64,000 bases of DNA from IMG/VR virus record IMGVR_UViG_3300031134_000466; one strand, given 5' to 3'. The position numbers and the translations under genes were made by a program. This stretch comes from a virus. Lineage: Duplodnaviria; Heunggongvirae; Uroviricota; Caudoviricetes. This document shows, piece by piece, positions 23,434 through 52,729 of the stretch. The notes beneath the pieces were generated by a model, which did not search any database, was not told where the DNA came from, and saw only the letters and a list, made by a program, of their open reading frames with translations. Position 1 is the stretch's first letter; each line of letters starts with the position of its first letter.

Positions 23434-24246
23434 ATGTGCAAACGCAAACCATACCCTCGTTGCAGCTACCATGCTCGCATCAAACTTGAAGCTGCAGAAA
23501 AGTCTGGTGATCTTGAACGCATCAAGCTTGCAAGAAGGAACTATTTCACTTCATTAGCTGGTATTGCTGACCTCAAAGCTCAGGGTAAAGATGCATTAGC
23601 TGCAAAATATGAGACTCGTAGAGCAAATCTCATTGCTCAAGCTGAACGTGAGACTAACCTCCGCAAGACACCCCTGGTTTTGGCGTTGGATGTAGACAAC
23701 ACCAGTGGTGACTTCACAGAATCCATTCGTAACCATGTCATGAAGACACAAGGACTTACTCCTGAACAGGCTGAAACACTTCTTCCTAGCCCTCCAACTC
23801 ACTACTCTTTCGTAGACTCAGGCTGGTTCACTGACGTTAACTCATTCCTGGATGCTTTCCATTCAGCGGAAGAGAATGGTGTTTACTCCAAGATGAAAGC
23901 TTTTGACGGAGTAAGCAAGACTCTTCGCACTTTGGTCAGTAATCGTGACGTTGAAGTTCGTGTTGTGACGGCCCGTGGTAACAGATGGAATGAAGAGACC
24001 CGTCAGTGGTTGCGTCGTCATCGTATTCCTTTCACTTCCATCACTCACACTGAGGACAAAGAGAAAGTCCCAGGTATCGATGTGTACATTGATGACTCTG
24101 ACAAGCAGATTAACACTCTGCAGAAGAACGGTAAGACAGTTATTGCGTTCGAGAATGCATACAACGCAACTGTTCCTTCTAAGTATCGTGTAAAGAAGTG
24201 GAAAGAAGTGCCGGCAGTTCTGAAACTCATCGCACAAGCCAAATAA
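23434..24246 (+). CDS. Effector-family protein: Cys/His N-terminal module fused to a HAD-superfamily phosphatase (5'-nucleotidase-like)
   Basis: N-terminus MCKRKPYPRCSYHA shared with the ARTs at 30500 and 51758; HAD motif I ALDVDNT, motif IV IDDSDKQ. Confidence 0.7.
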   Translation: MCKRKPYPRCSYHARIKLEAAEKSGDLERIKLARRNYFTSLAGIADLKAQGKDALAAKYETRRANLIAQAERETNLRKTPLVLALDVDNTSGDFTESIRNHVMKTQGLTPEQAETLLPSPPTHYSFVDSGWFTDVNSFLDAFHSAEENGVYSKMKAFDGVSKTLRTLVSNRDVEVRVVTARGNRWNEETRQWLRRHRIPFTSITHTEDKEKVPGIDVYIDDSDKQINTLQKNGKTVIAFENAYNATVPSKYRVKKWKEVPAVLKLIAQAK

Positions 24247-24391
24247 CAAACCATCAATATGGCGGTCCAGGATGCTAATTGTCCTGGGCCGCCCTTGTTT
24301 TCTCAATTAGGTGTTATGGGAACCTGTGAAAAGCTTGTTAATTACCGATACTTTTTTCAGCTACCTAACCCCCTTAGAGAGAAGAATCTGT

Positions 24392-26083
24392 ATGTCTGCT
24401 GGCAGCACGCACCCGACTATTCAAAACTACACAAAAATACGAGCAGCTTTTAGCTCCTCACAAGCCGCTATCGACTTAGCTTCCATCATGGTGGGTGTCA
24501 TCGTAATCGGACTTATTGGTGGAGTAATCTCTGCCACAGTATTCGCTATCATTCCTTGGGCACAGGACAAAGCAGCGAAAGCATCTCTCTCCTCAGTACA
24601 CACAGCAGAATCAGCATATGCTGGGTTCAGTGTTGGTGATGACGGAGAGAAGAAACAAACTTTTGGTAACTACGACGACTTGAAAGCTGAACATGGAGGT
24701 TTGCTTCAAGAATCTGAACGTCTAATAGTTTCCACCGGAACAAACAACAAAGACTGCTATGTTGCTGTCATTACCTCAGAGACAGGAAACCGTTTCTGGA
24801 TTGACAACAAGATCAGTGCACCTCGCATGTACCAAGAAGGTGACCAGTCAGAGTGTCTGAACCTTGAAGACATGTTCGGTGATGACAACGGTGGTATTGG
24901 ATACAACTCCTCCCTTGATGGTACTTACTTCGAAGGGCAAGGTTTTGCAGCTGTTGTTCACATTCGTAACAGTGCAATCAACTATGGTGTTGAACCAGAC
25001 CCAACTTGTGAGCCTACTGACCCAGCCACACAGGTAACACAGGTAAAAGCTTACTTAGACAGTGAAGAAATTGAAATTGCTGGTAGCTGGGAATACATGC
25101 AATCATCAGACGGAATTCAGACAGCAGTAGGCATCCAAACCACTAACGGATACATTGGTGCTACCACAGAGGAAGCTCAAACTTTCGCTGAAAGAGGACA
25201 AGTAATTTTCTTACCAGCTGGTTGTGCTGATTCAATCACCATCAACGTATCAGGAACATCCACTCCTCCAGGTGGTGACGACGGCGGTGGTGACCAACCT
25301 GTTGAACTATGCAGCAAGTACAATAACATGTTCACTGACGCCCAAACAACCAGTGAAACCACTGGAACTACTTTCTATGTTGACCCAAGCTGCAACACCA
25401 GCATGACTGCAATGTTCACATCCTTTGAGTCGATGTTCCAAACAATGGGACAGCCAACACTTACCGCTCGTACTGACGGTTGCTGGTCAGAACAGGGAAC
25501 TTATAAGAAAGTTGCCTGTGACCCAACAGGACAAGCTTACTACTACAGCCCAGGAAGCATGGAACAGTTCTGGACTTCAGCTAACGGAACAACAGTTGAA
25601 TTGTACCTCAACGGTTCAAGTACCCCATTCTTCTCCCAGGCATCAAACACTCCAAGTGAGTTCTACTACGAAGTTCCTCGTGAAGATAGGACAGATTCCT
25701 ACACTCAGAGCTCATACAACGCTGACGCTCCAACTGTCGGAATTGATGTCACAAGTAGCTACAGAATGACCAACTTCTACCGTGCAGCTAAACCAGCTGC
25801 AGGAACAACTTCAAACTCTTGCTTGGATGAACTTCAAGCGGGTAAGCTTCCAACCACTTACCAAGGCGAGTATGGTGTAGCTAACTGCCAAGGTGAAGAT
25901 GACTTCCGTATCTATGACTGGGACATCTCAGGTAACTTCGGTAATGCCGATGAAGCAACTTACGAAAACATCAAAACAGTCAGTGAACAAGGCGGTATGG
26001 TCAAGTTCACAACAACAGAAGGTAAAACTTCAACCATCCAGCTGAACCCAGGAGCTTTGAACCCAGAACCACAAGCTTCATAA
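24392..26083 (+). CDS. Membrane-anchored surface protein, paralogue C, with a divergent C-terminal domain
   Basis: AIDLASIMVGVIVIGLIGGVISATVFAIIPWAQDKAAK matches the N-terminus of 1636 and 2847; GAGAGAAG SD before the Met at 24392. Confidence 0.7.
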   Translation: MSAGSTHPTIQNYTKIRAAFSSSQAAIDLASIMVGVIVIGLIGGVISATVFAIIPWAQDKAAKASLSSVHTAESAYAGFSVGDDGEKKQTFGNYDDLKAEHGGLLQESERLIVSTGTNNKDCYVAVITSETGNRFWIDNKISAPRMYQEGDQSECLNLEDMFGDDNGGIGYNSSLDGTYFEGQGFAAVVHIRNSAINYGVEPDPTCEPTDPATQVTQVKAYLDSEEIEIAGSWEYMQSSDGIQTAVGIQTTNGYIGATTEEAQTFAERGQVIFLPAGCADSITINVSGTSTPPGGDDGGGDQPVELCSKYNNMFTDAQTTSETTGTTFYVDPSCNTSMTAMFTSFESMFQTMGQPTLTARTDGCWSEQGTYKKVACDPTGQAYYYSPGSMEQFWTSANGTTVELYLNGSSTPFFSQASNTPSEFYYEVPREDRTDSYTQSSYNADAPTVGIDVTSSYRMTNFYRAAKPAAGTTSNSCLDELQAGKLPTTYQGEYGVANCQGEDDFRIYDWDISGNFGNADEATYENIKTVSEQGGMVKFTTTEGKTSTIQLNPGALNPEPQAS

Positions 26084-26097
26084 ATAACCAAACTGTT

Positions 26098-26134
26098 GAA
26101 GCCTCCCACCTGTAGTAATAAGGTGGGAGGCTTC
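26098..26134 (+). terminator. Hairpin terminator
   Basis: gaagcctcccacct/aggtgggaggcttc. Confidence 0.6.
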
Positions 26135-26180
26135 AACCATGCTAAGATGTATGAAACCCCATACCTAACGAAAGAAATCT

Positions 26181-26297
26181 ATGGACGAGTATTCAGCTTT
26201 TGAGAAACGAAACAAAGTAATTCGAGTCGTCGCAATTGTCACAGTAATAGCTGTTGCCGGCTCAGGAATCGCAGCAGCCTTCTTCGGAGCATTCTAA
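26181..26297 (+). CDS. 38-aa small membrane peptide (single TM)
   Basis: MDEYSAFEKRNKVIRVVAIVTVIAVAGSGIAAAFFGAF; below the ORF-track cutoff. Confidence 0.3.
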   Translation: MDEYSAFEKRNKVIRVVAIVTVIAVAGSGIAAAFFGAF

Positions 26298-26337
26298 AAA
26301 TACCTGATGAGAGCGTCTTTTTGATTCAAAATTAGAG

Positions 26338-26365
26338 TTGCAAACCTCCGAAAACGTGCTATAAT
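26338..26365 (+). promoter_or_regulatory. Sigma70/SigA-type promoter TTGCAA-N16-TATAAT with the predicted TSS at the ATG of the PARP gene (leaderless)
   Basis: Hexamers read directly; the -10 ends 6 nt before the ATG at 26372. Confidence 0.45.
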
Positions 26366-26371
26366 AAGAGC

Positions 26372-27676
26372 ATGGGAAAAATCATTGAAGAGACAATGCT
26401 TGTCATGGTTGACACAAAGAACAACAACAACAAGTTCTACCATGTCACATTGGATGATGCTAACGTCGTCACCAAGCGCTGGGGACGTGTAGGAGCTGAA
26501 GGAGCGAGTTCCGTCGAGACAACAGGCAAGATTGGTTACGAGCGAGCCATCAAGTCCAAAGAGAAAAAGGGCTACAAGGTCTCACCTATTGTTAGCACAG
26601 GTGTCACAGTCAAGAGTTCTGTCAACCACCTTGACGAAGTAGCTAAGAAGTTTCTGTCCAAGGACAGCGGAGACAGCCTTATCAGCAACCTCATTGACCG
26701 ACTCATCGCATCAAACCAGCACCAGATTATGGAGCAGTCCGGTGGTATGATTAAGATTACCGACGACGGAACCGTAAAGACCGCTCTCGGTGTTGTTGAC
26801 CTTTGCTCCATCAACTCTGCCCGAGACCTCATTGGTGAGATGCAGAAGAAGAAAACAGGGCAGACCAAGCTCCTGGAAGATTACCTCACCCTCATTCCTC
26901 AGAACATTGGGTACCGTCGTGGTTGGGAAGAGGACTTCCTGAAGACGGAAAACTTTGCCAAGCAGATGGACTTCTTGAAGCAGCTTGAGGATTCTGTGCA
27001 GTGGCGAAACACCACCGCACAGGTCACCACAGATGACGAAGACAAGTTCGACATCGATGCTCACAAAGACCTGTTCCGCATGAACCTTGCGAAGATTTCC
27101 GACAGCGGAAAAGACTTCGACCGTATCAACAAGATGTTTAAAGAAACACGCAACAACATGCACACATCACGTAACCTCAAACTTGTGAACGTGTATGCAG
27201 TGGAAGATGTCAAGGGCAAGGAAGCTTACGAAGCTGCTCAGAAGAAGTATGGAAACGTACGTGAACTCTGGCACGGAACAAAAGCCTCCAATGTTCTCTC
27301 CATTCTCACAAAGGGATTGTTCGTGCCTAACGCAGGTAGCGGTATCCCTGTGACAGGAAGAATGTTCGGTGATGGTGTCTACTTCAGTGACCAGAGCACC
27401 AAAAGCTTGAACTACGCCAACGGTTACTGGGATGGTTCACGCACCAGCCAGAACTGTTTCATGCTTCTGAACGATGTTGTCATGGGTCATGAGTACCGCC
27501 CTCAGCGTTGGGACTACAGCTCTCTCCGTCAGGCACACAAGGGCGTTGGAACTTCAGGTAAGCCTTACCAGTCCATCAGCGTTCGTGGTGGAACCTGTAA
27601 CGTTCGAAACAACGAAATGATTATTTGGAACACTGACCAGGTGGCTGTACGTTACCTCTGCGAATTTGGTAGCTAA
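26372..27676 (+). CDS. Poly(ADP-ribose) polymerase: WGR domain, helical domain and PARP catalytic domain
   Basis: WGR motif KRWGRVG; catalytic H-G-T, GDGVYFSD, KSLNYA and NNEMIIW aligning to the PARP1 HGS / Y / catalytic-Glu region. Confidence 0.85.
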   Translation: MGKIIEETMLVMVDTKNNNNKFYHVTLDDANVVTKRWGRVGAEGASSVETTGKIGYERAIKSKEKKGYKVSPIVSTGVTVKSSVNHLDEVAKKFLSKDSGDSLISNLIDRLIASNQHQIMEQSGGMIKITDDGTVKTALGVVDLCSINSARDLIGEMQKKKTGQTKLLEDYLTLIPQNIGYRRGWEEDFLKTENFAKQMDFLKQLEDSVQWRNTTAQVTTDDEDKFDIDAHKDLFRMNLAKISDSGKDFDRINKMFKETRNNMHTSRNLKLVNVYAVEDVKGKEAYEAAQKKYGNVRELWHGTKASNVLSILTKGLFVPNAGSGIPVTGRMFGDGVYFSDQSTKSLNYANGYWDGSRTSQNCFMLLNDVVMGHEYRPQRWDYSSLRQAHKGVGTSGKPYQSISVRGGTCNVRNNEMIIWNTDQVAVRYLCEFGS

Positions 27677-27745
27677 TTGACAGCTTTTAGCCTATCTGCT
27701 GAAAATCACCAGAAAAGAAATATCGTATCAGTGATGCTGGTAAAG

Positions 27746-28399
27746 CTAATTGTGTTTTTTTGCAGGTACAGGTCTACTCATTGAATTTGCACTTCCTAAT
27801 ATGAATATTAACGCTGTGCTGGCTAAATTCAATATATTACTAAACGTTAAAACTAAATTTAGCCTTGATTGTTTTGTTTCACGGATTTCAGGATTGTAAA
27901 CATATTCTGGTACTTCTGCCAAGCATTTTTCTTTAGGAGTTAGGTTGTTGTACCAGGCAGCTGTTTGGGGCATGGAACCGGCACTATTTGAAACATTCGC
28001 ACATCGTTCGGCGGGAGTCATATTCTCTATTCGGGCGTCATTCAAAGAAGTTCCAATTACAATACTTTGCAGAAGGAAAGATATAACACTCAAAGTCAAG
28101 ATAAGACCAGGTAATTTTGATAAAGATTTTGTGTCATTGCCTCTTCTAAACCATAGGCTAATTGTAGGGGCTAAAATAGCTATAGTGAATATCAACGTGA
28201 GTACGTAAAATTGTTTCGTACTTATAAACTCAGCATATCGCATAAGTAACAAAACGATATTTACAGAAACATAAAATAACATCCAATACCAAAATTCACT
28301 TTTACTGGCTGTTCCTTGGGGCTTGAAACTACGTTCAAATCCATGGCGTATTGCTCTGAAAAAATTAACAGATTCTGCAACAGGGGGTATATAAGTCAT
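27746..28399 (-). CDS. DUF805-family inner-membrane protein
   Basis: ASKSEFWYWMLF motif and 4 TM helices. Confidence 0.6.
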   Translation of the reverse strand: MTYIPPVAESVNFFRAIRHGFERSFKPQGTASKSEFWYWMLFYVSVNIVLLLMRYAEFISTKQFYVLTLIFTIAILAPTISLWFRRGNDTKSLSKLPGLILTLSVISFLLQSIVIGTSLNDARIENMTPAERCANVSNSAGSMPQTAAWYNNLTPKEKCLAEVPEYVYNPEIRETKQSRLNLVLTFSNILNLASTALIFILGSANSMSRPVPAKKHN

Positions 28400-28538
28400 A
28401 CATCTATATTCGGTTCAAAAGAACAAAATAACACTTAGATAACAGGCTATTGATCGGATGTAGAGAGGATGACATGTTTCTATAGTGCGTGTATCTCAGA
28501 TAATCTAAGGTTGTAATTCGCCTTGTTAGACATAAACT

Positions 28539-29579
28539 ATGACCACTGCTACTAAATGTGCCAAACCAAAAGGGGTATATTGCCGTTTGCACAACCCTGA
28601 ACCTCGTGGGTATGCTTCTGCATCAGAAGCGTTAAATAAAGCAGAGCAGGACTTCAACAAAGCCAACCCGATCAAATCTTCTTCTCCTGGTGTTTCTTTT
28701 CATAAAAACGGTGAGACTCGCACATTGCACAAAAGTGTTCCAGAGAACATTGCTGACCATATTGCTTTGAATCAAGAACAACTGTCTCACTTGTCAGACA
28801 TGCAGAAGAAAGCTTTGAACGGTTACACCGGCTTTGCTGCAGGTGTTTGCAATAGTGTGTTGTTAGCAAAAGAATTCGCTTATGAGTATTACGAAGATGC
28901 CCCTCTATGGAAAGAAGCCCCAGGAGGAGCGTGTGACTTTGTTTCTCGTGAAGATTTAGTTGACTACATGGAAACAATGGATGGTATCCTTGCTTCCCGC
29001 CAGGAACAATCCCGAGTTCTATACCGTGGTATTCCTATTTACTCAGAACTGCATGACGAGATTGGTAATGGCATAGGTAAAAAGCTGCCTTTCGCTGATG
29101 CTACTGGCTTAGCAGAGGGTTTGAGTGAATATTACAAGCCTGGTACTGTCATTAAGCATGACCATTACTTGTCCACAACAGCATCAGCGTATTATGCAGC
29201 TGACCGTACAGACAATTCCATCGGGACAAAAAAGAGCTATTACGATAGCAATGATGTACCAGTCGGTATTGTCTTTGAGCTGAAAACCAATGCTGGTTTG
29301 GATGTTACAGCTGCAGCTCGTCATCATTCTTATGAACGTGAAGTGGTGTTACCTCGTGAAACTTACTTCAAAGTTGTCAACGTGGACGTGAATCCACAAG
29401 CTTATGACACTGTTTCAGGATTCGATACGCTCAACCATCCTGAGGAGCGAGAGCAGAAAACTTTCACTCGCTTAGCTGCTGTTGTTCAGATGGTCGAAGT
29501 AGACAAAAACGGCAAAGAAATAACAGGTACTGCACCTCATAATCCAGAGAGAAAAATCAGCGACATCATTCCTGGATGA
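28539..29579 (+). CDS. Mono-ADP-ribosyltransferase (R-S-E class, C3/VIP2-like)
   Basis: YRG Arg, STT, and ExE loop YEREVVLPRETYFKVV; weaker version of the shared Cys/His N-terminus. Confidence 0.75.
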   Translation: MTTATKCAKPKGVYCRLHNPEPRGYASASEALNKAEQDFNKANPIKSSSPGVSFHKNGETRTLHKSVPENIADHIALNQEQLSHLSDMQKKALNGYTGFAAGVCNSVLLAKEFAYEYYEDAPLWKEAPGGACDFVSREDLVDYMETMDGILASRQEQSRVLYRGIPIYSELHDEIGNGIGKKLPFADATGLAEGLSEYYKPGTVIKHDHYLSTTASAYYAADRTDNSIGTKKSYYDSNDVPVGIVFELKTNAGLDVTAAARHHSYEREVVLPRETYFKVVNVDVNPQAYDTVSGFDTLNHPEEREQKTFTRLAAVVQMVEVDKNGKEITGTAPHNPERKISDIIPG

Positions 29580-29612
29580 CAGCACCTTTGTTGGATTACT
29601 CCAAATATAGTT

Positions 29613-29658
29613 AAAAAGCTGTGGCGCCACCTCTACAAAGGTGGCGCCACAGCTTTTT
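29613..29658. terminator. Bidirectional hairpin terminator
   Basis: aaaaagctgtggcgccacc/ggtggcgccacagcttttt. Confidence 0.65.
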
Positions 29659-29884
29659 AACTTCTCATTTTCCTCTTATTAGCCATCTCCAATATTCTGT
29701 TGTATTCAACAACCTGCAGTAGAGCAGCACGTAGAGTATCTTCTAAGAACGCACCGTCTTTGTTTCGGTAGTCGGTACTGACTGAGATGTGATTGCCGTT
29801 CACAGTGAAGCGGATGAAGTTGGCTTCATGAGGCTGTGAGGCCGGGGATGGTTTTCCGAGGTGGAGTGATACGTTTTTTGACAT
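29657..29884 (-). CDS. Hypothetical small protein
   Basis: AAAGGA SD before the internal Met; the ORF is open to 29953. Confidence 0.4.
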   Translation of the reverse strand: MSKNVSLHLGKPSPASQPHEANFIRFTVNGNHISVSTDYRNKDGAFLEDTLRAALLQVVEYNRILEMANKRKMRS

Positions 29885-30049
29885 GGTTATCCTTTCAGTT
29901 GGTGTTATTGACTGAAAAGATAAATTTGCGTTACATGTCTTAGATAGTATCACATTCGTTTAGGACTCGGACAGAATCACTTATCGGCTACTTGCTCGAA
30001 AGTGTGATGTTTTCAACTAAGCTGCATTCAAATATGGTAACCTGTAATT

Positions 30050-30460: not shown

Positions 30461-30499
30461 GGTTGGTAGCATATGCTTACATCTTGTTAGAGATTAGGT

Positions 30500-31465
30500 A
30501 TGTGCTACCCCAAACCTGGTCCTCGCTGTTCAGCTCATGCTGCAGTTAAACTGGCGACTGTAAAACTCGCTTCTACCAGCGGTAGTCAAGATTTTGCCGA
30601 GTACTTAGCTCATCAGGAGCGTCTTGAAGAAGCTCAGCTGGAGTATGACATCACGCCAGCAGGTTTGAAAGATTTACAGGATTTAGTGGGTCAACGAAAT
30701 GACCCTGACGCTGAGCTCCGTTATTCCAAAGCTAAAGCCCTGAGAGCAAAGAAGTTGGCTTTGTTGCATGAAGACCAGAAACAAGAGCAAGGTCATACTC
30801 TTGCAAGGGTTCAAGGGGTAAATGAAGATTTTTGTTCTGATGAAATTGTTCGTTCTAACAAAGATGCTGGAATCACATCCGCAGCTTTAGTAGCTGAAGC
30901 TGAACCGTGGTTTAATCAGTTGAACGATGATGAACTTTCTCAAATGCACTGGATGACCGACTATGGTTCAATGGAAGCTAATACGCACATCGCAGGAACC
31001 AATGACCATAAACGTTTTGGTGGTCTATTCTCTGCAGAGAACTTGGAATCTCGTATGGTTCAAGTTGACTCGGCTTTGAGTAAGTTTGAGTCACATCATG
31101 ATGAAGTTGTCTACAGGGGCTTTCGTGAAGGCTCTCTTCCCTCTGCTATGGCAAACAACTACCGGGTATCAGATGATGTGAAGCAAGCTGCAGTTCTGAA
31201 ATCTTTCACCGTAGGTGAAGTCTACAAGTCTGATTTCTACATGCCAACTTCTGTACAGCCTGAAGAGGCTGCTCGTTTTGCTGATTTCGGTTGCGTCATG
31301 GAAATCAAAACCCGCAAAGCTGCTCCTGTATCTGCCATTTCTGAAGTTCCCCGTGAGTCAGAAAAACTGATTGGTCGTAACAGTGAATTCAAAGTCGTGG
31401 CAATCAAAGAGAACATCATGTACGGCATTAAGAGAATGACTGTTGTTCAGTTAGAGCAACTCTAA
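30500..31465 (+). CDS. Mono-ADP-ribosyltransferase (R-S-E class) with the Cys/His N-terminal module
   Basis: MCYPKPGPRCSAHA N-terminus; VYRGF, MPTSV, ESEKLIGRNSEFKVV. Confidence 0.8.
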   Translation: MCYPKPGPRCSAHAAVKLATVKLASTSGSQDFAEYLAHQERLEEAQLEYDITPAGLKDLQDLVGQRNDPDAELRYSKAKALRAKKLALLHEDQKQEQGHTLARVQGVNEDFCSDEIVRSNKDAGITSAALVAEAEPWFNQLNDDELSQMHWMTDYGSMEANTHIAGTNDHKRFGGLFSAENLESRMVQVDSALSKFESHHDEVVYRGFREGSLPSAMANNYRVSDDVKQAAVLKSFTVGEVYKSDFYMPTSVQPEEAARFADFGCVMEIKTRKAAPVSAISEVPRESEKLIGRNSEFKVVAIKENIMYGIKRMTVVQLEQL

Positions 31466-31547
31466 TTTTCATTCATAAGCCTTTTCTGAGGCGTTTCACA
31501 AGAATCTGCTAGGCTCCTGCTAAGAAACATTAGTTAAGGAGACTCTC

Positions 31548-39327: not shown

Positions 39328-40449
39328 TCAGTCAGCAGTTTTTCCGTTCAAGTTCCAGAATGGCTTCTCAAACTCAGGCTGAATCATTTTCCAGATGATG
39401 TCAGAGATTTTCTTCTCAGACCTGGTATCAAAATGACCTCCGCTGTGACGAGAGAATAACAAACCAGTAATGCGTTTGTCTTCTTTCTGTACAGCTGCAG
39501 CGTAGTCCTTCTGAGTGTATCCTTCAGGAAGTTCAGAAAGAATACGGTTGTAAGTTTCCTCAACTGTTGCACGCAATTCAGCATGCTCTGCAAGTAGTCG
39601 GTCACGAGTTGTTTCGACATACTCAACGAACTCATCAGGGAGACCAACAATCCATGAAGTGAAGTCACCGTCAGCTACAAGCAGCTCCCAGATGCGACGC
39701 GAAGAAGCACCTGTGATGACACGGTGAAGCTGAACGTAGTCATCCTGTTTCACTTTCACTCGAACATCACTATCCAGGAAGTGAACAACAACGCCTTCTT
39801 TGTTCTCACGACCAGGAGCGGCCAAAGCTTCAGTAAGGCTGTTGTATTCAAACTGCTCAACCTTCAACCAAGTCCATTCATCAACCTGTGATGCTGGTAC
39901 AGAGCGACCTGTTGCTGTGTTCACTCGGGCAATCAAGATGAGGTCATCCAAATCACCGTAGTTAACAACGATACGGTTTGTAGGGTAGATGATTTCCCAG
40001 ATGTAAGTTTCACCAGCAAGTGGCTCCCATTTTCCGTCGTACAGCTCCTGGTAACGTGCTGTGGCATGCAGAGCCTGCTCAGAGCTGAATGAACCTCGTG
40101 TGGAGATGTTCAGTCGACCAGTTTCAGGGTTTACATATGAAACACCCATAGAACCATCTGCTTTGTCTGTGACAACGATAGGTCCAGTCAGTGCATCCTG
40201 AGGAACATCTGGTTCGCCGTGGTTAAAGAACTTACCAAGAGGGCGGGAGACAATCTCCTGGGTGGAACCGTCAACGATAAGTCCTCGTGAAGCTAATGTT
40301 GCAGCGTTCCAGGCTCGGTCAAACTGGCATACCTGTGAGTAGTCAAAGATAGCCAGGTCAAGCGTAGGGTGAACCTGACGATTGATGTGCTTGTTCTGGA
40401 ATTCAGCTGCCCAAAGTTCAGCAGGAGCGATATCGTAAATGTGTACCAT
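39328..40449 (-). CDS. ATP-dependent RNA ligase, paralogue 1
   Basis: Nucleotidyltransferase motif I VTDKADGSMG (KxDG); shared block LASRGLIVDG...RPLGKFFNHGEPDVP with the ligase at 54122. Confidence 0.75.
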   Translation of the reverse strand: MVHIYDIAPAELWAAEFQNKHINRQVHPTLDLAIFDYSQVCQFDRAWNAATLASRGLIVDGSTQEIVSRPLGKFFNHGEPDVPQDALTGPIVVTDKADGSMGVSYVNPETGRLNISTRGSFSSEQALHATARYQELYDGKWEPLAGETYIWEIIYPTNRIVVNYGDLDDLILIARVNTATGRSVPASQVDEWTWLKVEQFEYNSLTEALAAPGRENKEGVVVHFLDSDVRVKVKQDDYVQLHRVITGASSRRIWELLVADGDFTSWIVGLPDEFVEYVETTRDRLLAEHAELRATVEETYNRILSELPEGYTQKDYAAAVQKEDKRITGLLFSRHSGGHFDTRSEKKISDIIWKMIQPEFEKPFWNLNGKTAD

Positions 40450-42792: not shown

Positions 42793-44685
<1,893 letters not shown>

Positions 44686-44700
44686 TTTCTGAGATACTCT

Positions 44701-44797
44701 GAAAGGGACGCTACTGTGATAATGGTAGCGTCCCTTTCAGATTGCATTTAAACGATAAAGTAGAAAGGCCCTGACTAAAGAGTCAGGGCCTTTCTAC
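44701..44797. terminator. Two tandem hairpins after dnaK (44701-44738 and 44760-44797)
   Basis: gaaagggacgctac/gtagcgtccctttc and gtagaaaggccctgac/gtcagggcctttctac. Confidence 0.6.
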
Positions 44798-45427: not shown

Positions 45428-45511
45428 AGAAATGGCATAGTTCGGCCTGGGTCATCACCATTGTGTTACAATTGACCTGTACAACACCAATAAAGCGTAA
45501 CAGGAGTTACC

Positions 45512-46171: not shown

Positions 46172-46365
46172 CGAACAACATACCAAAAAGTTGTCAGAGT
46201 GGAGTAAAGATGGTAGACTTGTCTCAGTTGGCGATAACAGTCGCCCGTCTCAAGTGGTTACTCCTACGCGGTTTCGCTGTTGAGAGCAAGGTCCCGAGGA
46301 TTCTGTTATCTCACCATCATTCTATTTGACGGTTGAGCGTAGGTTGACTGTCAGAAAATAGGTAA

Positions 46366-47154
46366 ATGATGACTACAAACAGTTTCCAGAAAAAAGCCAT
46401 TCGTGAACGAATGAAGCACACTGGTGAACCGTACCTCGAAGCTTCCCGCCAGCTTTATGGAACCTCTGACAAGTTTCCTACTCCATGGTCTGAACTCAAT
46501 AAAGTTTTGGACGGTGGACTAAGAAAAGGTTCAGTTACTCTTCTTGGCTCTGGACCAGGAGGAGGTGCCACAAGCACAGCTATCAGCATCGCAGAAGGTG
46601 CTAAAAATAAGAGAGCTTTGTATGTTTCCTCGGAAATCTATGGACAAGAATTTCGCACTTTGGACAGTAAGCGGGATGATGATTCTTCTGACCTTATTTT
46701 CATCTACATCGGGCGAGAACAGTTTGGTAACTTAGTCGGCTCTTTGAAAGGGATGGTGTCATCAGTACATGACATCAAAGATGAACCTGATGTCGAGCTT
46801 ATTGTTATTGACTCTTTCGACTTTCTGACTCCTGAACTGCCTACGGTCCAAGAAGCAGCTGCTATGTCTGCTCAAATTAAGAAAATGGCTATCGAGCTTA
46901 ACCTTCCAGTAGTTCTTCTTACTCATTTGAGTACACAATCTGCACACGAAAAAAACCACTTCAGACATTCTTCTGATTTGGTCCAAGACTCTGATGTAAT
47001 ACTCACCTCTCATGTTGAAGGAGAGGGTGTCAACTTAGTTGTTCGCAAAAACAGATTCGGGGACTACGGTCAAAAGATTGCTTTAGATTGGGACAAAAAG
47101 AACTGCTTAATGACATCGAAAAAGTCTACTAATAACTCCTCAGAAACCAACTGA
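46366..47154 (+). CDS. RecA-fold (DnaB-C / KaiC / RadA-like) protein with a degenerate Walker A
   Basis: TLLGSGPGGGATS replaces GxxxxGK(S/T); Walker-B-like LIVIDSFD. Confidence 0.5.
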   Translation: MMTTNSFQKKAIRERMKHTGEPYLEASRQLYGTSDKFPTPWSELNKVLDGGLRKGSVTLLGSGPGGGATSTAISIAEGAKNKRALYVSSEIYGQEFRTLDSKRDDDSSDLIFIYIGREQFGNLVGSLKGMVSSVHDIKDEPDVELIVIDSFDFLTPELPTVQEAAAMSAQIKKMAIELNLPVVLLTHLSTQSAHEKNHFRHSSDLVQDSDVILTSHVEGEGVNLVVRKNRFGDYGQKIALDWDKKNCLMTSKKSTNNSSETN

Positions 47155-47200
47155 CGTTAGATATAGTAGTGCAGGTAAAACTGTGTTATCTAACTCCTTT

Positions 47201-47232
47201 ATTGCGCCGCCTTCTCACTGAGGCGGCGCAAT
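47201..47232 (+). terminator. Hairpin terminator
   Basis: attgcgccgcct/aggcggcgcaat. Confidence 0.6.
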
Positions 47233-47248
47233 TGGTTAAATTGCCGAC

Positions 47249-47668
47249 ATGAAGAAAACAAGCTATAATCATTGCATGCTCCCTGAAGGTATAATCACCC
47301 ATCGTAAGATCATTCAACTGCAATTTACTGATATTGCAGGCGATAATTACAGTATTGCTCAAATGGATGACAGCAATGCAGCTGTTGGACATTGCGAAGA
47401 TGTTTCCAGAACCATTCTCAACTCAGGTCTTCTTGAAAATGCTGAGTTAGTAAGTGTCGAAGCTCTCACAGGGAGTGAAGTCTGGTGGCATGTAGCGGTA
47501 GGTATCACTGATCCTGTTTCAGAAGAGCTCACAGTGTACGACTACACTGCACGTCAATTCAGTGCTAATTTGCCTTTCCCTTTAATTCAGCATTATGACA
47601 CATGGGTAAACACCATTGAAACACACGCTAAGAAAGGAACGCTGGCTTTCAGCGAACTCGTATGGTAA
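47249..47668 (+). CDS. Hypothetical protein
   Basis: ORF only. Confidence 0.45.
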   Translation: MKKTSYNHCMLPEGIITHRKIIQLQFTDIAGDNYSIAQMDDSNAAVGHCEDVSRTILNSGLLENAELVSVEALTGSEVWWHVAVGITDPVSEELTVYDYTARQFSANLPFPLIQHYDTWVNTIETHAKKGTLAFSELVW

Positions 47669-48114
47669 ACATGACCCCAACACTTGACTTGAAAGAAAGT
47701 TTCACAGTCCAACGCTTCTACTCTGAGCTGAAAAGGCTAATCAGTTCTTTGGAAGCTGGCACACCAGTTACTGATGACGAGCGTATTTGGCTTATCGTGT
47801 TGAATGCAGGACTTGATAACTTCCAAGGCAGTTTCTATGCAGCAGAAGAACCTCAGCCAGACACTGTAGAAAACTGGTTACTTTTTGCGAACAACATTCA
47901 GATTAGCTTGTACGCATTATCCGATGAACAAGGATGGTTCTTCTTTAGAACAGGAACTCCAGGTGCAACGGTAAAAGAACTGCTCAAGTCTGAAGTGTCA
48001 TCCAACCTTCTTTCATCTACTGATTGGGATGCTTTGGTGTCCCAGCTGGAGAATGATGAGAGTAACGAAATGTTTATCGATGGCGAAGTGTACGTTTGTA
48101 ACGTGCGGTTCTAA
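47662..48114 (+). CDS. Hypothetical protein
   Basis: ORF overlapping the upstream stop. Confidence 0.45.
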   Translation: MVNMTPTLDLKESFTVQRFYSELKRLISSLEAGTPVTDDERIWLIVLNAGLDNFQGSFYAAEEPQPDTVENWLLFANNIQISLYALSDEQGWFFFRTGTPGATVKELLKSEVSSNLLSSTDWDALVSQLENDESNEMFIDGEVYVCNVRF

Positions 48115-48133
48115 GAATCCGATATAGGTCGAC

Positions 48134-48655
48134 ATGAATAAACTTGTAGTTGCCTGTGATGGTTCATGCCTAAAAAATCCAGGCGGCGCAATTGGATGGT
48201 CCTGGGCGGACAGCAAAGGACGCTGGCAAGCAAACGGTTTACCCACCGGGACAAACCAGGTAGCTGAACTTATTGGGTTATTGTCTGTCCTTTACGCTTT
48301 TCCTAATACAGACCTTCACATCAAAATTGACTCACGTTACGCTATGGACATCTCAACCAAATGGATGTTTACCTGGAAGAAGAATGGTTGGTGGCGTGAC
48401 ACTCAGCAGACAAAAGCAGTTAGCAACCTCACCCACGTGAAAGCTCTTTATGAAGCTCTTCGAATTAGAAAAAAGAAGAACCTTGTAACAACATTCGAAT
48501 GGGTGAAAGGCCATGCTTCTGACACTTTGAACAACAAAGCCGACAAAGAAGCTCAAGCAGCTGCCAGGCGAGTCAAAGCCGGCAAACTAGCGTATGCTGA
48601 CTCAGCAAAGAACACAACTTCTGAACGACAAACAAGAATGTTAGAAACCCTGTGA
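48134..48655 (+). CDS. rnhA: Ribonuclease HI
   Basis: CDGSCLKNPGG, TNQVAEL, and a C-terminal His/Asp. Confidence 0.8.
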   Translation: MNKLVVACDGSCLKNPGGAIGWSWADSKGRWQANGLPTGTNQVAELIGLLSVLYAFPNTDLHIKIDSRYAMDISTKWMFTWKKNGWWRDTQQTKAVSNLTHVKALYEALRIRKKKNLVTTFEWVKGHASDTLNNKADKEAQAAARRVKAGKLAYADSAKNTTSERQTRMLETL

Positions 48656-49461
48656 CTCTCACTATTGCTTCATACAACATCCAAGTGCCTGCCGCTAAAG
48701 CTGAATTCCATGGCTGGGAGGGGAGGAAAGAAGAACTGTTGGCAACGTTGCCAACTTTAGGTGATCTGTTTGGTTTACAAGAAGTTTCATACGTAGATAC
48801 TCAAGGGTCAGAGGTTTCAACCCAGCTACGTAACAACGGATTTGATGGTTATGAACCTTCACATAACGACTTTAGCGAATATGATGACGAATTCCATCAG
48901 AGAAATCCTATCTTCTGGAAAGCTGACAAATTTGAACTCAAACAAAGCCATGTAAGGCTACTCACTACAGGAACTGTCGAAGAGCAGCAAGAGCTTCCCA
49001 ATATTGAAAACAGATACAGCACTCACGTATTGCTGGAGCATGTTTCAGGTGATTTGATCCATTTCTTCAACCTTCACCAGCAGCATGTTCCCATTGAACT
49101 AACAGATGAAGAACTCATTGCCAAATATGCAGCGGTGCAGGTAAAAGGTCTGATAGCTTTGCACGAATTTGCTCAGGAAGTCAACCCAGAAAATAATCCT
49201 GCAATCATTGTTGGAGATTTCAACTCTGTTTCCCCAACTGTCATGGGGTTCACCTGTGCCAAGAAAGCCGCTAACGAAAACGTGAATGGCCAGTACAACA
49301 GCTACCACGGCTATGTAGAAGAAACGGCTGCTAACGGTGACTACATAATTGACCATATACTGTCAAATTTCCCAGCTGGTGACATTCTTCGCACTGAGAC
49401 TTTGATAGAAGACAAAGGCAGCGACCATTACCCTCTGCAAGCATCATTCAAACACTGCTGA
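48652..49461 (+). CDS. Endonuclease/exonuclease/phosphatase (EEP) family protein
   Basis: IIVGDFNS, DHIL and GSDHYPL motifs. Confidence 0.7.
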   Translation: MTLTIASYNIQVPAAKAEFHGWEGRKEELLATLPTLGDLFGLQEVSYVDTQGSEVSTQLRNNGFDGYEPSHNDFSEYDDEFHQRNPIFWKADKFELKQSHVRLLTTGTVEEQQELPNIENRYSTHVLLEHVSGDLIHFFNLHQQHVPIELTDEELIAKYAAVQVKGLIALHEFAQEVNPENNPAIIVGDFNSVSPTVMGFTCAKKAANENVNGQYNSYHGYVEETAANGDYIIDHILSNFPAGDILRTETLIEDKGSDHYPLQASFKHC

Positions 49462-49519
49462 CGATAGTAAAAAATAGACTTCCGGTAGACTTGAACTCTG
49501 CCTAACCAGATTTGGAACC

Positions 49520-50176
49520 ATGAGAATAGTAGTAGCTGATTGTTCAGTCATTTACACAGGAAGAGGAGACACCCGTCTTCCCCGAGCAGTCCGAGCGATC
49601 ATTGTCAAAGATGATGGTTCAATCTCAGTGCATAACGACAAAAGTAACAAACCTTTGAACTATATGGGTAAAGGTAACGAGCTTTCAGAAGTTGAGCTGG
49701 AAGATTGTAAACTATGGTTCTTTGACACAAGGCAAGAAAGTCTCCGCATTACTTTACATGAAGTTATTTCTGACACTGATTTCCTCCTTGATCGAAACGA
49801 TGAAGGACTGATCCGTGACGGCACAGAGAAGCAGCTGCAGGCTTGGTTAGCAGAGAACCCAGAAGCATTAGGTGAAGGCTATACTTTCGTTCAAAGAGAA
49901 TATCAGACAGGTGCAGGAGCTGTTGATTTGTTAGTCACTGACCCTGAAGGTAACCCTGTGGCGGTAGAAGTGAAACGAGTGGCCATGATTAACAGTGTGA
50001 GCCAGACACAACGTTATGTTGAGTCGATGAAAGAGGACCCTGAGTTTGCCAATACCACTGGCATTATCGCCGCTTTAGACATTCGACCTAACACTGTGAA
50101 GTTAGCGGACAAAAAGAAAATCCGCTGTGTCACTTTACCAACATGGTGGCGTGACCCAGCGGATACTTCAATGTAA
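49520..50176 (+). CDS. NucS/EndoMS-like PD-(D/E)xK endonuclease
   Basis: GAGAVDLLVTDPEGNPVAVEVKR nuclease motif. Confidence 0.6.
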   Translation: MRIVVADCSVIYTGRGDTRLPRAVRAIIVKDDGSISVHNDKSNKPLNYMGKGNELSEVELEDCKLWFFDTRQESLRITLHEVISDTDFLLDRNDEGLIRDGTEKQLQAWLAENPEALGEGYTFVQREYQTGAGAVDLLVTDPEGNPVAVEVKRVAMINSVSQTQRYVESMKEDPEFANTTGIIAALDIRPNTVKLADKKKIRCVTLPTWWRDPADTSM

Positions 50177-50177
50177 T

Positions 50178-50666
50178 TCAGCCGTCAAACTTTTCGACAT
50201 CTTGAGGTGCTACACGGTAAGCGTATTCTGTTTTTGCTGACAGGTAGTACACGTACAGCTTGTCAGTTTTGTCAGTACTGGTTTCCAGAATGTAATTACG
50301 TTTTGCATCTTCATCCAAGAACCCGTTCTGATTGTGAAGCATCTCAAGCGATTCTTCTTTTGTAAGGCCAAGATAAGAGTAGTTCTTGTCAAACCATTTC
50401 AAATAGCTTTTTTCTGAAATAGCTACTTTCTGTTGGGGCTGGAAGAATGAAATGTGCCAGAAGCTGAAACCGGCAGCTCCTACAAGAAGGAGAGTGAATA
50501 GCCAGGTCAGGATAACAGGAAGTTGCCTGATGGCAGGGATAATCATGCCCAGGATGAGTAACCCTGCTGGGATGAGGAGGAACCAGAAGTTGAAGTTCTC
50601 ATACCCAGATAGATCATGAGGAGGCAACCAACCAGTGAGGTCTTCCAGTGTGATGTCGTTGGGCAT
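50178..50666 (-). CDS. Membrane protein (3 TM)
   Basis: Hydrophobic helices. Confidence 0.45.
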   Translation of the reverse strand: MPNDITLEDLTGWLPPHDLSGYENFNFWFLLIPAGLLILGMIIPAIRQLPVILTWLFTLLLVGAAGFSFWHISFFQPQQKVAISEKSYLKWFDKNYSYLGLTKEESLEMLHNQNGFLDEDAKRNYILETSTDKTDKLYVYYLSAKTEYAYRVAPQDVEKFDG

Positions 50667-50800
50667 GATTCTAATGTTCCTTAATCGTTGTCAGCTTTAT
50701 GAGCGGTCAAAGAATTCTATCATCAACGGCTAAAGCACATAGTATTTGACAGCTGGCTGGGTTTCATGGTAAGTTGGAGTATCTTAAGTTAGGAAACAAA

Positions 50801-51706
50801 ATGTCACAGATAATGCGGATTCACCGTGGAGTGCAAGGCTCTGGTAAATCCACAGAAGCCATCCGTTGGGTGAACCAGGACCCGTTAAACCGTGCCCGTG
50901 TGAACCGTGATGACATTCGTCTCAGCCAGTTCGGCTCCTACGAGCTTCCTCAGGAACTCGAAGTTGCTGTTACCAAAGTAGAGCATGCCATCATCACCGC
51001 ACTTCTTGCTGCACGCAAAAGTGTTGTTGTTGACAATGTGAACCTGAAAGCCAAGTACGTTAAAGAGTACCTGCTTATTGCGGAGAAAGCCAACGTACCT
51101 GTTGTGCATCAGGACTTCCCTGTGGAGTTGGAGACAGCTCTTGCTCGTAACGCTGCTCGTGACCGTAAAGTCCCTGCACATGTGATTGAGACAACATTCA
51201 AGCGTTACATTCAGAGTGGCAAGTTCCCTCCGTTCCCCGTACTTGACTACGAAGCCGCTGCAGCAGGAATCTATGTTCCTGATGAGACTCTGCCTAAAGC
51301 TATCCTTTTGGATGTTGACGGCACAGCCATGAAGATGGGTTCACATCGTGGACCGTTTGACTGGCACAAAGTCATTGATGACGAGCCTAACCCGCCTGTT
51401 GTTGAAACAGTAAAAGCTTTGCATGCTCAGGGCTACAAAGTTGTTGTCATGTCTGGTCGTGATGAAGTCTGCAAAACAGACACGTTACTTTCTCTGGAAG
51501 TAGCTGGTGTTCCTGTGGATGAAATCTACATGAGACCCCACAACGATTACCGTAAAGACAACATCATCAAGCGTGAACTTTTTGATGCTCACATTCGGGA
51601 GCGTTTCAACATCCTGTTAGCTTTGGATGACCGGAACCAGGTTGTGGACGCTTACCGTCGTGAGCTGGGTCTTCCTGTCTTTCAGGTTGACTACGGAGAC
51701 TTCTAA
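50801..51706 (+). CDS. pnk: Polynucleotide 5'-kinase/3'-phosphatase (T4 Pnk-like)
   Basis: N-terminal P-loop GVQGSGKST kinase; C-terminal HAD LLDVDGT...SGRD...LDDR; AGGAAA SD. Confidence 0.8.
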   Translation: MSQIMRIHRGVQGSGKSTEAIRWVNQDPLNRARVNRDDIRLSQFGSYELPQELEVAVTKVEHAIITALLAARKSVVVDNVNLKAKYVKEYLLIAEKANVPVVHQDFPVELETALARNAARDRKVPAHVIETTFKRYIQSGKFPPFPVLDYEAAAAGIYVPDETLPKAILLDVDGTAMKMGSHRGPFDWHKVIDDEPNPPVVETVKALHAQGYKVVVMSGRDEVCKTDTLLSLEVAGVPVDEIYMRPHNDYRKDNIIKRELFDAHIRERFNILLALDDRNQVVDAYRRELGLPVFQVDYGDF

Positions 51707-51717
51707 GTCAGCATGAG

Positions 51718-51750
51718 TAAAGCCCCGAATCGTAACTTGATTCGGGGCTT
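51718..51750. terminator. Bidirectional hairpin terminator
   Basis: aaagccccgaatc/gattcggggcttt. Confidence 0.65.
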
Positions 51751-51757
51751 TACCTGT

Positions 51758-52729
51758 TTAAATTTCTCGCAGCTGCACAATTGTCAGTTCAGTTGCTTCA
51801 CCTTTTTTATTGACCCTTTTGACTTTCACATCATTAGCAACAACTTCGAATTTTGCACCACGAGGAATGATGAACTCATACTCTCTTGGACCTTGCGATG
51901 AAATAGCTGTGATTGGGGCTCCACTTTTTGTAAGAATCTGTAAAGAAACATTGATGTTGTCTTTGGAAGGTAAATCTTGAGGATTCAAACTTGTCGATAA
52001 GAAGAATTTAGGTTCGTAAGTGCTACCAACAGGGAAATGTTTGTCGAGGTTTTGAGCGTCATCACTTGAATGATATCCTTTTTCATCATAAAGATGATGA
52101 CGGCGGTAAACCATCACGCCTTCTTCTGCTGGTTCGTGTTTAGCAAAAGCATCATCCAGGATAGTTACAGCTGCATCCAACGTTTCAGGTGCAACATTTT
52201 TTGCGTACGGATTTGTTGAAGCTGAAAGATGGCCGTTGATGTCAGCATAGCCATCTTCTGAATACCAGCGAAGAGTAGCTATTTCAGTATCATCCAGTTT
52301 GGCACTCCAGTTTTGGGAATCTGCCATGCTGTTCAACAGGTCAGCATGTTTGTAATGCATCTCTTCAAGAGTGTCACCAGTTTCGAAAAACGTCGGAGAA
52401 GTGTAAGCAGCTTTTTGTGCTTTTTTGTGGGTGATGACTTTACGATCCGCAACAGCAGCTAATCTTCTGGCTCGTTCTTGAGAAAGCGCTTCGTATTCTT
52501 CTGCATGCCATTCCTGCGTTGGATTCTTTTTGATCTGTCTTTCCAAAGACTTTAGATAAGCTGGTGTTAGTTTGTACTCTGCTTCAGCTTTTCTTCTTAC
52601 CGCTATTAGCTTCTCAAGCTCTGGGTCTTTGCGGTTGTCCATGAAAGCACTGAGAACCGCTTGATGAGCTTTAGCGTAGGTGGCTGCAGCATGAGCTGAA
52701 CAACGGGGACCAGGTTTTGGGTAACACAT
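51758..52729 (-). CDS. Mono-ADP-ribosyltransferase (R-S-E class) with the Cys/His N-terminal module
   Basis: MCYPKPGPRCSAHA N-terminus; VYRR, LSTSL, PREYEFIIPRGAKFEVV. Confidence 0.8.
   Translation of the reverse strand: MCYPKPGPRCSAHAAATYAKAHQAVLSAFMDNRKDPELEKLIAVRRKAEAEYKLTPAYLKSLERQIKKNPTQEWHAEEYEALSQERARRLAAVADRKVITHKKAQKAAYTSPTFFETGDTLEEMHYKHADLLNSMADSQNWSAKLDDTEIATLRWYSEDGYADINGHLSASTNPYAKNVAPETLDAAVTILDDAFAKHEPAEEGVMVYRRHHLYDEKGYHSSDDAQNLDKHFPVGSTYEPKFFLSTSLNPQDLPSKDNINVSLQILTKSGAPITAISSQGPREYEFIIPRGAKFEVVANDVKVKRVNKKGEATELTIVQLREI

Follow-up and report, generated by a model that had tools for sequence, protein, structure and literature searches.

The 64,000-nt stretch analysed here (viral record IMGVR_UViG_3300031134_000466; hereafter the window) encodes three proteins that begin with the same cysteine-containing module, a ~95-residue, strictly N-terminal domain fused to different catalytic heads. 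The family was previously uncatalogued: no model in Pfam, NCBIfam, PHROGs or PADLOC spans the module, its predicted structure matched no fold in PDB or BFVD, and literature searches on motif strings and on the N-terminal domains of huge-phage ADP-ribosyltransferases (ARTs) found no relevant description. An initial annotation, made from the sequence alone, had judged that the family looks undescribed and had allowed for a match to a known housekeeping domain; the curated libraries and the literature string search agree with the former, and neither a housekeeping nor any other curated domain matches the module.

The three N-termini were made into a profile and run in an exhaustive search of 1.84 billion cluster representatives (50% identity level); 481 clusters matched at E ≤ 1e-3, of which 45 reached E ≤ 1e-10, and in each of the 150 matches listed the alignment begins at residue 1. 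Such an exhaustive search was needed because word-index homology searches recovered only two and eight short proteins. With 481 clusters of variable C-termini, the idea of a conserved Cys/His module carried by different catalytic heads holds well beyond this genome, and the module is also predicted to be a structured domain. An AlphaFold2 (AF2) model based on an 80-sequence alignment (predicted local distance difference test, pLDDT, 94.8) consists of a 10-residue loop followed by helices at residues 11–31, 36–53, 56–68 and 73–99, and the module contains an inter-helix motif, [YFW]-x-x-T-P-x-G. In alignments of 80–150 members M1, C2, P8, R9 and C10 are invariant, and Y3, P6, G7, S11, H13, A14, T55, P56, G58, L62 and R86 are at least 90% conserved. 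The C-x7-C spacing is kept in 149 of 150 members, His13 in 131 (87%) and a possible fourth metal ligand, GD-x-H near residue 100, in 48 (32%). From this conservation, the N-terminal cysteine knuckle may be a small metal-binding element (the metal probably being Zn) or one recognized in some other N-terminus-dependent way. In 68 distinct genes, any base can stand at the third position of the 14 N-terminal codons, whereas the first two positions do not change; since synonymous sites vary and the amino acids do not, selection acts on the protein and not on a DNA or RNA element.

The common start of the three window proteins is MC[YK][PR]KP[GY]PRCS[AY]HA. The translation of open reading frame (ORF) 23434–24246 (+) opens with MCKRKPYPRCSYHA, and those of ORFs 30500–31465 (+) and 51758–52729 (−) both open with MCYPKPGPRCSAHA, the two being identical at 14 of 14 N-terminal residues. 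A six-frame regular-expression scan of the 64-kb window found this block solely at these starts, plus a weaker form, KCAKPKGVYCRLH, at ORF 28539–29579. The likeness among the three N-termini reaches about residue 95 (pairwise identity 41% and 32% across ~100 aa) and covers a helical region with Y-x-[IL]-T-P-A-G-x-K-x-L. A hidden Markov model (HMM) of the module, built on 80 diverse members, recognizes all three and, with the translations, bears out the near-identical starts noted initially; Pfam likewise agrees with the initial calls of ARTs at 30500 and 51758 and a HAD phosphatase at 23434. The short 'KPYPRC' variant of ORF 23434 also occurs in family members P0068, P0080 and P0121. The tagged ORFs comprise the following features:

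23434–23664 (+): N-terminal module, aa 1–77 of ORF 23434–24246, short variant MCKRKPYPRCSYHA (module HMM, E = 1e-13, model positions 1–93)
23662–24234 (+): HAD-superfamily NT5C-type phosphatase/nucleotidase domain with DVDNT motif (Pfam PF06941, 2.6e-17; phrog_420; phrog_415)
30500–30784 (+): N-terminal module, aa 1–95 of ART 30500–31465 (translation; module HMM, E = 6.5e-26)
30902–31438 (+): ART domain of ORF 30500–31465 with YRG, P-T-S and E-S-E (Pfam PF03496, 2e-15; PF01129, 1.7e-6)
52430–52729 (−): N-terminal module, aa 1–100 of ART 51758–52729, MCYPKPGPRCSAHA knuckle plus four helices (translation; module HMM, E = 6.7e-26; AF2)
51809–52327 (−): Alt/Vip2-type ART domain of ORF 51758–52729 with R209, S-T-S 243–245 and E283-x-E285 (Pfam, phmmer, Foldseek, BLASTP)

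The catalytic domains themselves are ordinary members of known families (R-S-E ARTs and HAD NT5C). Against PF03496 (ADPrib_exo_Tox, gathering cut-off 23.4 bits), ORF 51758 scored 74.6 bits (8.7e-21) and ORF 30500 57.1 bits (2e-15). In PDB, the ART domain of ORF 51758 matched Vip2, CdtA and iota Ia by phmmer, and ORF 30500 matched Vip2 (E = 4e-4). An AF2 model of full-length ORF 51758 (pLDDT 93; predicted template modelling score, pTM, 0.91) retrieved Vip2 (8.5e-11), Certhrax, Plx2a, CDTa, iota Ia, C3 and Tre1 by Foldseek, with E-values of ~1e-8 to 1e-10, and BLASTP aligned its ART domain with residues 420–619 of T4 Alt (25% identity, E = 5e-7). The catalytic motifs read YRR/STS/EYE in ORF 51758, YRG/PTS/ESE in ORF 30500 and YRG/STT/ERE in ORF 28539, and R209, E283 and E285 are invariant in a 45-sequence ART alignment. 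All three ARTs had initially been credited with a full R/S-T-S/ExE triad and an ExE-PRG-FKV loop; the Arg and ExE are indeed kept in all of them, but an exact S-T-S with ExE-x-x-x-PRG occurs only in ORF 51758, whereas ORF 30500 has E-S-E...GRN and ORF 28539 E-R-E...PRE. ORF 23434 scored 63.7 bits against PF06941 NT5C (cut-off 24.8), carries an LDVDNT motif at residues 85–90 and matched phrog_420 (3.5e-20) and phrog_415 (polynucleotide kinase family, 1.2e-10).

A Pfam census of 150 family representatives gave 55 ADPrib_exo_Tox and 24 ART heads, together with LRV/HEAT repeats, RNase_T, YqaJ, T4-type RNA ligase, RlaP and DUF7226. Further heads are ART-PolyVal (PF18760, 2e-17 in L032:4404), GNAT (L033:10001) and a type II restriction endonuclease-like nuclease. 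The 135 C-termini of at least 80 aa fell into 42 BLAST clusters, 31 of them singletons. Some module proteins are headless (84–116 aa), and one such stand-alone module lies 73 bp upstream of a separate gene for DUF7226, a domain fused to the module elsewhere. Copies are often arranged in tandem and number three in the window, at least 11 within 20 kb of locus L040 (human-skin metagenome) and six within 10 kb of L032. Module-gene repertoires turn over quickly between genomes ~92% identical. Locus L029, related to the window at that level, has an extra 1-kb ART gene (L029:8104–9114, 336 aa, type-B knuckle), missing from the window, which has ~90 bp at that place (about 29570–29660). In L029 the orthologous gene of ORF 30500 is broken up into two ORFs, and a DUF805 membrane-protein gene (27746–28399, −) is found only in the window when the region 27675–28519 is compared with L029 and L031.

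The N-terminus of the ART at 28539 had been regarded as a weaker version of the module. It does show the same C-x7-C-x2-H spacing, but there is no detectable homology: the module HMM did not find it, hhalign gave a probability of 4%, and what it has in common with the module is only this spacing, a Gly at +5 and an upstream DNA motif (see below). Membership of the module family found no support from HMM or hhalign for the N-termini of an exonuclease and an RNA ligase of the window either, and these three N-termini are treated here as putative sister knuckles:

28539–29579 (+): ART with sister N-terminal knuckle KCAKPKGVYCRLHNPEP, C-x7-C-x2-H (PF03496, 4.9e-4, below cut-off)
14395–16506 (−): YqaJ/RecE-like plus DEDDh exonuclease, N-terminal Cys pair RCPAQKKC (Pfam YqaJ, RNase_T; PHROGs)
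54122–55363 (+): T4 Rnl1-like RNA ligase, N-terminal NCWTKDCS knuckle (RNA_lig_T4_1, 1.6e-14; phrog_562, 4.5e-58; upstream motif)

The PF03496 score of ART 28539 is 19.9 bits, and its paralogue L029:8104 passes the cut-off (49.5 bits, 4.2e-13). The 28539-type motif, C-[AS]-K-P-x-G-x-Y-C-R-L-H-N-P, is kept in other genomes (L019:16231, L029:8104), as is the knuckle of the RNA ligase (L009, L010, L020). Other variants are C-x-A-K-[DN]-P-x-x-C-R-[YH]-H-G, fused to ARTs; M-C-x-S-K-x-x-G-G-x-R-C, fused to Rnl1 and DUF7226 and also present just inside a long ORF of L007 that contains a HELAH motif; and N-C-W-T-K-x-C-S, fused to Rnl1, window ORF 54122 included. The exonuclease, whose true start is the ATG at 16506 downstream of the DNA motif, carries only a C-x5-C pair, and its orthologues elsewhere bear the canonical module (30% identity to module-bearing P0133 over 673 alignment columns). 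When C-x7/8-C-x2-H was counted in the window and 62 related loci, over 777 unique ORFs of at least 150 aa, 85 occurrences fell within the first 45 residues and six elsewhere. Because of this positional enrichment, and because the same heads (ART, Rnl1, DUF7226) are fused both to the module and to the sister C-x7/8-C-x2-H knuckles, the knuckle, more than the helical domain, appears to be the common functional denominator.

Three module genes share the sequence GTTAGRNAT shortly before their ATG. Eight copies were observed in the window vs three expected, and five of these precede the starts of ORFs 23434, 28539, 30500 and 51758 and of the exonuclease gene (four at 5 nt, one at 8 nt). The motif scan placed the following copies before knuckle genes:

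23417–23425 (+): GTTAGGAAT, 8 nt before the ATG of ORF 23434
28525–28533 (+): GTTAGACAT, 5 nt before the ATG of ORF 28539
30486–30494 (+): GTTAGAGAT, 5 nt before the ATG of ORF 30500
52735–52743 (−): GTTAGAAAT, 5 nt before the ATG (52729) of ORF 51758–52729
16512–16520 (−): GTTAGAGAT, 5 nt before the ATG (16506) of the exonuclease gene
54108–54116 (+): GTTAGTAAT, 5 nt before the ATG of the RNA ligase gene 54122

Across the window and all loci, GTTA[GT]NNAT-N5-ATG occurs at 45 unique sites, 42 of which open an ORF of at least 80 aa; 41 of these 42 ORFs encode the N-terminal Cys pair, vs 149 of 777 in the background. The 5-nt gap between motif and ATG holds no Shine–Dalgarno sequence, and in higher-GC relatives the motif lies 30–40 nt upstream and is followed by one. 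A −10-type element without a −35 is known from T4 late promoters, and the present element may be of this kind, a −10-type promoter lacking a −35 that would give leaderless mRNAs in the low-GC genomes and would mark the knuckle genes as one co-regulated class. Two further GTTAGRNAT copies (47156–47164, +; 26161–26169, −) have no ORF after them and are followed within ~25–40 nt by a strong GC-rich hairpin; these hairpins could be small RNAs from the same promoter type, or chance. The promoter-like motif, the knuckle genes 14395–16506 and 54122–55363 and the occurrence on actinobacterial conjugative plasmids described next are additions to the initial annotation.

The window had no megablast match among cultured phages (INPHARED) but is 90–93% identical to parts of a single 788,683-bp JGI metagenome contig, Ga0308164_10000007 (L010, L029). 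Other carrier contigs measure 791, 879–885, 603 and 240 kb, with 89–215 kb contigs from a human-skin metagenome; the phage-like carriers, all uncultured, are metagenomic genomes of 0.2–0.9 Mb. Sibling contigs of 791 kb (Ga0265797_10000002, 791,393 bp) and 879–885 kb (among them Ga0308158_10000009, 885,359 bp) recur across samples. Searches of the 50,697 cultured-phage records of INPHARED and scans of IMG/VR found no carrier of the module. The flanks of module genes hold densely packed, redundant tRNA arrays: 48 tRNA genes in L037 (2269–19712, ~17.5 kb), seven of them for tRNA-Leu; 18 with transfer-messenger RNA (tmRNA) and signal recognition particle (SRP) RNA in L044 (123–14201); 13 with SRP RNA in L016 (3250–19659); and seven in L046. 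Bacterial SRP RNA genes are thus embedded in the arrays of two unrelated elements; the window itself had no Rfam match. Gyrase, DnaB and a CCA-adding enzyme are also encoded in the flanks, ~75–80% of the genes neighbouring module genes have no Pfam match, and the family spans 37% to 69% GC and several host lineages. Judged by this gene and RNA profile, the carriers are probably huge phages. Such phages have been reported up to 841 kb (bioRxiv 10.1101/2025.01.14.633092); if phages, the 788,683-bp contig and its siblings would stand at or above the largest reported, and none of them is in IMG/VR.

All cultured carriers are Actinobacteria, in which the genes reside on conjugative plasmids and integrated elements. 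The module is encoded on the chromosomes of Agrococcus sediminis and of Demequina sediminis (three copies within 20 kb, near a TrbL/VirB6 gene), on 23 Rhodococcus plasmids and on one Kineococcus plasmid. On the linear plasmid pROB02 a 379-aa gene starting with MCKPKPGPRCTPH (complement of about 26,435–27,574) has FtsK/SpoIIIE and ParA genes as neighbours and overlaps the end of a gene for N-formylglutamate amidohydrolase (FGase); on Rhodococcus plasmids an FGase gene runs into the start of the module gene. Within ~0–2.5 kb of tag genes, five loci have genes for R2K-type ATP-grasp amidoligases (L024:2909–3757, L004:7577–8437, L044:7056–7865, L048:7592–8500 and L063:8208–9008). These two kinds of neighbour could hint at a peptide-type modification of the tag or of its targets.

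The window also encodes SNF2, RNR-beta, PNKP, two Rnl1-like ligases, two NadE, an NMNAT-like protein, PARP-WGR and Hsp70, as well as an ABC transporter, Wzy and a permease. An NAD-consuming and NAD-making gene set adjoins the three or four ARTs: a protein with eukaryote-type PARP catalytic and WGR domains (26372–27676, +) lies between tagged genes, and two NAD synthases and an NMNAT-like cytidylyltransferase follow downstream (56409–57374, 58101–59624 and 62265–63158, all +). An RNA-repair set consists of a T4 PseT-like polynucleotide kinase-phosphatase (50774–51706, +) and the Rnl1-like ligases at 39328–40449 (−) and 54122–55363 (+), only one of which has the N-terminal Cys knuckle and the upstream motif. 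A 905-aa ORF (18430–21147, +) joins a dNMP-kinase-like N-terminus to a C-5 cytosine DNA methylase split by an intein (Hint and intein-splicing domains). A full-length Hsp70/DnaK gene occurs near tag genes in three genomes (window 42826–44685, +, Pfam 772 bits; L028:4719–6551; L046:15542–17410) and is directly followed in L046 by a gene for a type-E knuckle protein. Large proteins with a pilin-like hydrophobic N-terminus (…AAIDLASIMVGVIIIGLIGGVI…), one of which carries DUF285 repeats, are encoded at 1636–2751, 2847–4235 and 24311–26083 (+) and at L001:724–2442 and L014:7429–8979; in three genomes such a homologue adjoins or approaches a module gene, directly 3′ of it in the window and in L001 and ~1 kb upstream in L014. 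Classical type IV prepilin-like genes (GFTLIELLVV) lie near module genes in eight loci, Demequina included. No immunity gene adjoins the tagged genes in the window, their downstream neighbours being those for an SPFH protein (31548), the convergent PNKP (50774–51706) and the 590-aa pilin-like protein (24311), and neighbour clustering across loci gave no conserved small downstream ORF.

As to function, we tentatively favour the module as a trafficking or adaptor tag that may bring its heads to the DNA-transfer machinery of the element for early action in a new host. This reading is built on the polyvalent-type heads and on parallels to T4 Alt and the T4 capsid-targeting sequence (CTS), to MuF fusions, to polyvalent proteins and to polymorphic toxins; the strictly N-terminal tag, the variable and often toxic heads, the arrays and their turnover, the cis-element and the phage-like and conjugative carriers together suggest the logic of an effector family with a common N-terminal address. 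By way of the tag, enzymes that are diverse and potentially toxic would reach a single conserved partner, in the capsid interior or at the transfer channel; these enzymes would enter the new host with the DNA or immediately after it, and would act there as first-line takeover or anti-defence effectors. Rather unlikely, in our estimate, is the bolder version in which the knuckle, alone or joined to the four-helix domain, forms together with a GTTAGNNAT promoter-like element dedicated to it a previously unknown effector-delivery or targeting pathway of ~0.8–0.9 Mb phage-like genomes and actinobacterial conjugative megaplasmids, with its own recognition machinery, to which the recurrent pilin-like, R2K ATP-grasp/FGase or Hsp70 neighbours may be linked.

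Several observations speak against a delivery tag. The tag genes lie amid replication, RNA-repair and NAD-metabolism genes and outside any structural module, and neither the window nor the fetched flanks showed a capsid, portal or terminase gene. The RNA ligase, RecE-like exonuclease and nucleotidase heads are typical intracellular functions, the exonuclease of the window works without the module, and modules also stand alone. The pTM of the full-length model suggests that the module is packed in a fixed way on the ART domain and is not a free leader. There is no similarity to the regions upstream of the ART in T4 Alt and no MuF domain; there are only three conserved metal ligands (C2, C10 and H13), a universal fourth not being found among the 150 members. 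Finally, the phage nature of the carriers, all the phage-like ones being uncultured, is itself inferred, since structural genes did not come to light and neither IMG/VR nor INPHARED contains the module.

Much of this would suit an intracellular docking domain, the main alternative, possible though somewhat unlikely, in which the module is not delivered but tethers nucleic-acid- and NAD-using enzymes (ART, phosphatase, exonuclease, RNA ligase, nucleotidyltransferase, nuclease) to a single hub, either in an infected cell or in a recipient. Candidates for the hub are the ends of DNA or RNA, a factory for replication or repair, and conserved machinery of the host, for example the ribosome or RNA polymerase. 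The majority of identifiable heads do work on nucleotides or nucleic acids, the module itself is moderately basic (median pI 9.1, net charge +4), its genes keep the company of replication, RNA-repair and NAD genes, the high pTM implies an integrated two-domain enzyme, and orthologous exonucleases exist with and without the module, as expected of an optional recruitment domain. However, LRV/HEAT-repeat heads and stand-alone modules fit enzyme recruitment poorly, an ordinary docking domain needs no strict position at residue 1, and the huge paralogue arrays look more like conflict effectors than factory parts.

The dependence of N-degron pathways on the protein N-terminus brings up a regulatory or stability tag, which we regard as improbable. 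Here the Cys pair would serve as a switch responding to redox state or metal, as a degron or as an autoinhibitor, and would hold toxic heads inactive, or set when they are destroyed, in the producing cell. Many heads (ARTs, nucleases) are potentially toxic and no immunity gene adjoins them in the window; C2 and C10 are invariant while His13 varies, the module is confidently packed on the ART domain in the AF2 model, and N-terminal dependence is typical of degrons. A 95-aa folded domain, however, far exceeds the size of a degron, and non-toxic heads (LRV repeats, RNA ligase) are tagged too.

Returning to the carriers, it is very improbable that they are ultra-small cellular genomes, such as Saccharibacteria-like epibionts of Actinobacteria (0.8–0.9 Mb), exporting tagged effectors through a pilin-associated machine. 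Contigs of 0.79 and 0.88 Mb turn up repeatedly in different samples, pilin-like genes of the type IV kind lie near tag genes in the eight loci mentioned, the window has cellular-type genes (DnaK, ABC transporter, Wzy, permease), and the cultured carriers are all Actinobacteria while the module is absent from IMG/VR. Yet 48 redundant tRNAs, and arrays with adjacent tmRNA and SRP RNA, are typical of huge phages and not of cells; no ribosomal-protein, aminoacyl-tRNA synthetase or rRNA gene was found in the window or in the ~280 kb of flanks scanned for RNAs; and the window has phage-type genes (RecE-like exonuclease, Rnl1, PNKP, the intein-bearing methylase). An origin in cells like those of the candidate phyla radiation is judged unlikely on two grounds: few of the neighbouring genes have Pfam matches, and the tRNA arrays are redundant and accompanied by tmRNA and SRP RNA. 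That the shared start is a by-product of recent duplication or a conserved nucleotide element (a recombination handle or translation signal) with no protein function, as the identical starts of two ARTs and the conserved DNA motif directly upstream might suggest, can be dismissed, as synonymous positions are randomised over fixed amino acids in the 68 genes, the family spans a wide GC range and several host lineages, and AF2 folds the domain at pLDDT 95.

If the tag is indeed an address label, it would label a whole arsenal of ARTs, nucleases and RNA-modifying enzymes, and would serve as a sequence handle for listing what effectors the largest known phage-like genomes and actinobacterial megaplasmids possess, bringing to light mostly unannotated proteins, as the many singleton C-terminal clusters indicate. 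It would also point to a partner or receptor, and possibly to a new promoter class with leaderless expression. Culturable Rhodococcus strains carry members (R. jostii RHA1; R. opacus B4, on pROB02), making the family approachable without a giant-phage isolate. Even as a docking domain, the module would define a large, strongly conserved and uncatalogued family that deserves a curated model.

T4 Alt and internal proteins are packaged via N-terminal targeting sequences. The ART domains described here are likewise of Alt/Vip2 type (phrog_802), and in both cases an N-terminal block is common to unrelated cargo proteins of one element; the T4 CTS, however, is a 10-aa phage-specific peptide, whereas the present tag is a predicted 95-aa Cys-knuckle helical domain found across hundreds of divergent genomes. 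The likeness to Alt drawn initially does not extend beyond the ART domain: aligning the module profile with T4 Alt by hhalign gave a probability of 0.1%, so that homology of the module to the Alt upstream regions is rejected, and the phrog_802 match is explained by the ART domain. The initial comparison with MuF fusions fared no better in the strict sense: neither the window proteins nor 150 family members matched a MuF or portal model in Pfam. MuF-fused ARTs and polyvalent proteins (PMC5512222; PMC9503650) nevertheless share with the module family overlapping effectors (ART-PolyVal, GNAT, nucleases), the same spread over phages and conjugative elements and the same predicted early-phase role; injected polyvalent proteins are typified by ART-PolyVal and GNAT heads (Iyer et al. 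2017, PMC5512222). Polyvalent proteins, though, are giants of 2–15 domains, while here a tag is joined to one head and numerous paralogous genes share out the diversity.

N-terminal trafficking domains define polymorphic toxin families. Those of the LXG/WXG100 systems (type VII secretion) also combine an N-terminal helical module of ~100 aa with variable toxin-like heads, and paralogue arrays and an Actinobacteria-rich host range are seen in both. In polymorphic toxin systems, however, an immunity gene directly follows each toxin, which is not seen in the window; LXG and WXG100 domains lack the invariant Cys pair at the extreme N-terminus, and the window proteins had no Pfam LXG or WXG100 match even at E ≤ 1 and no W-x-G motif. 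With the R-S-E ARTs C3, Vip2, iota, CDTa and Certhrax the tagged ARTs share the catalytic fold and the R/S-T-S/E-x-E motifs, but the N-terminal ART-like adaptor or signal peptide of those toxins is replaced here by the knuckle-helical module. What the module has in common with known effector systems is their design principle alone; it is not demonstrably a new category of effector system, but it is a new domain family.

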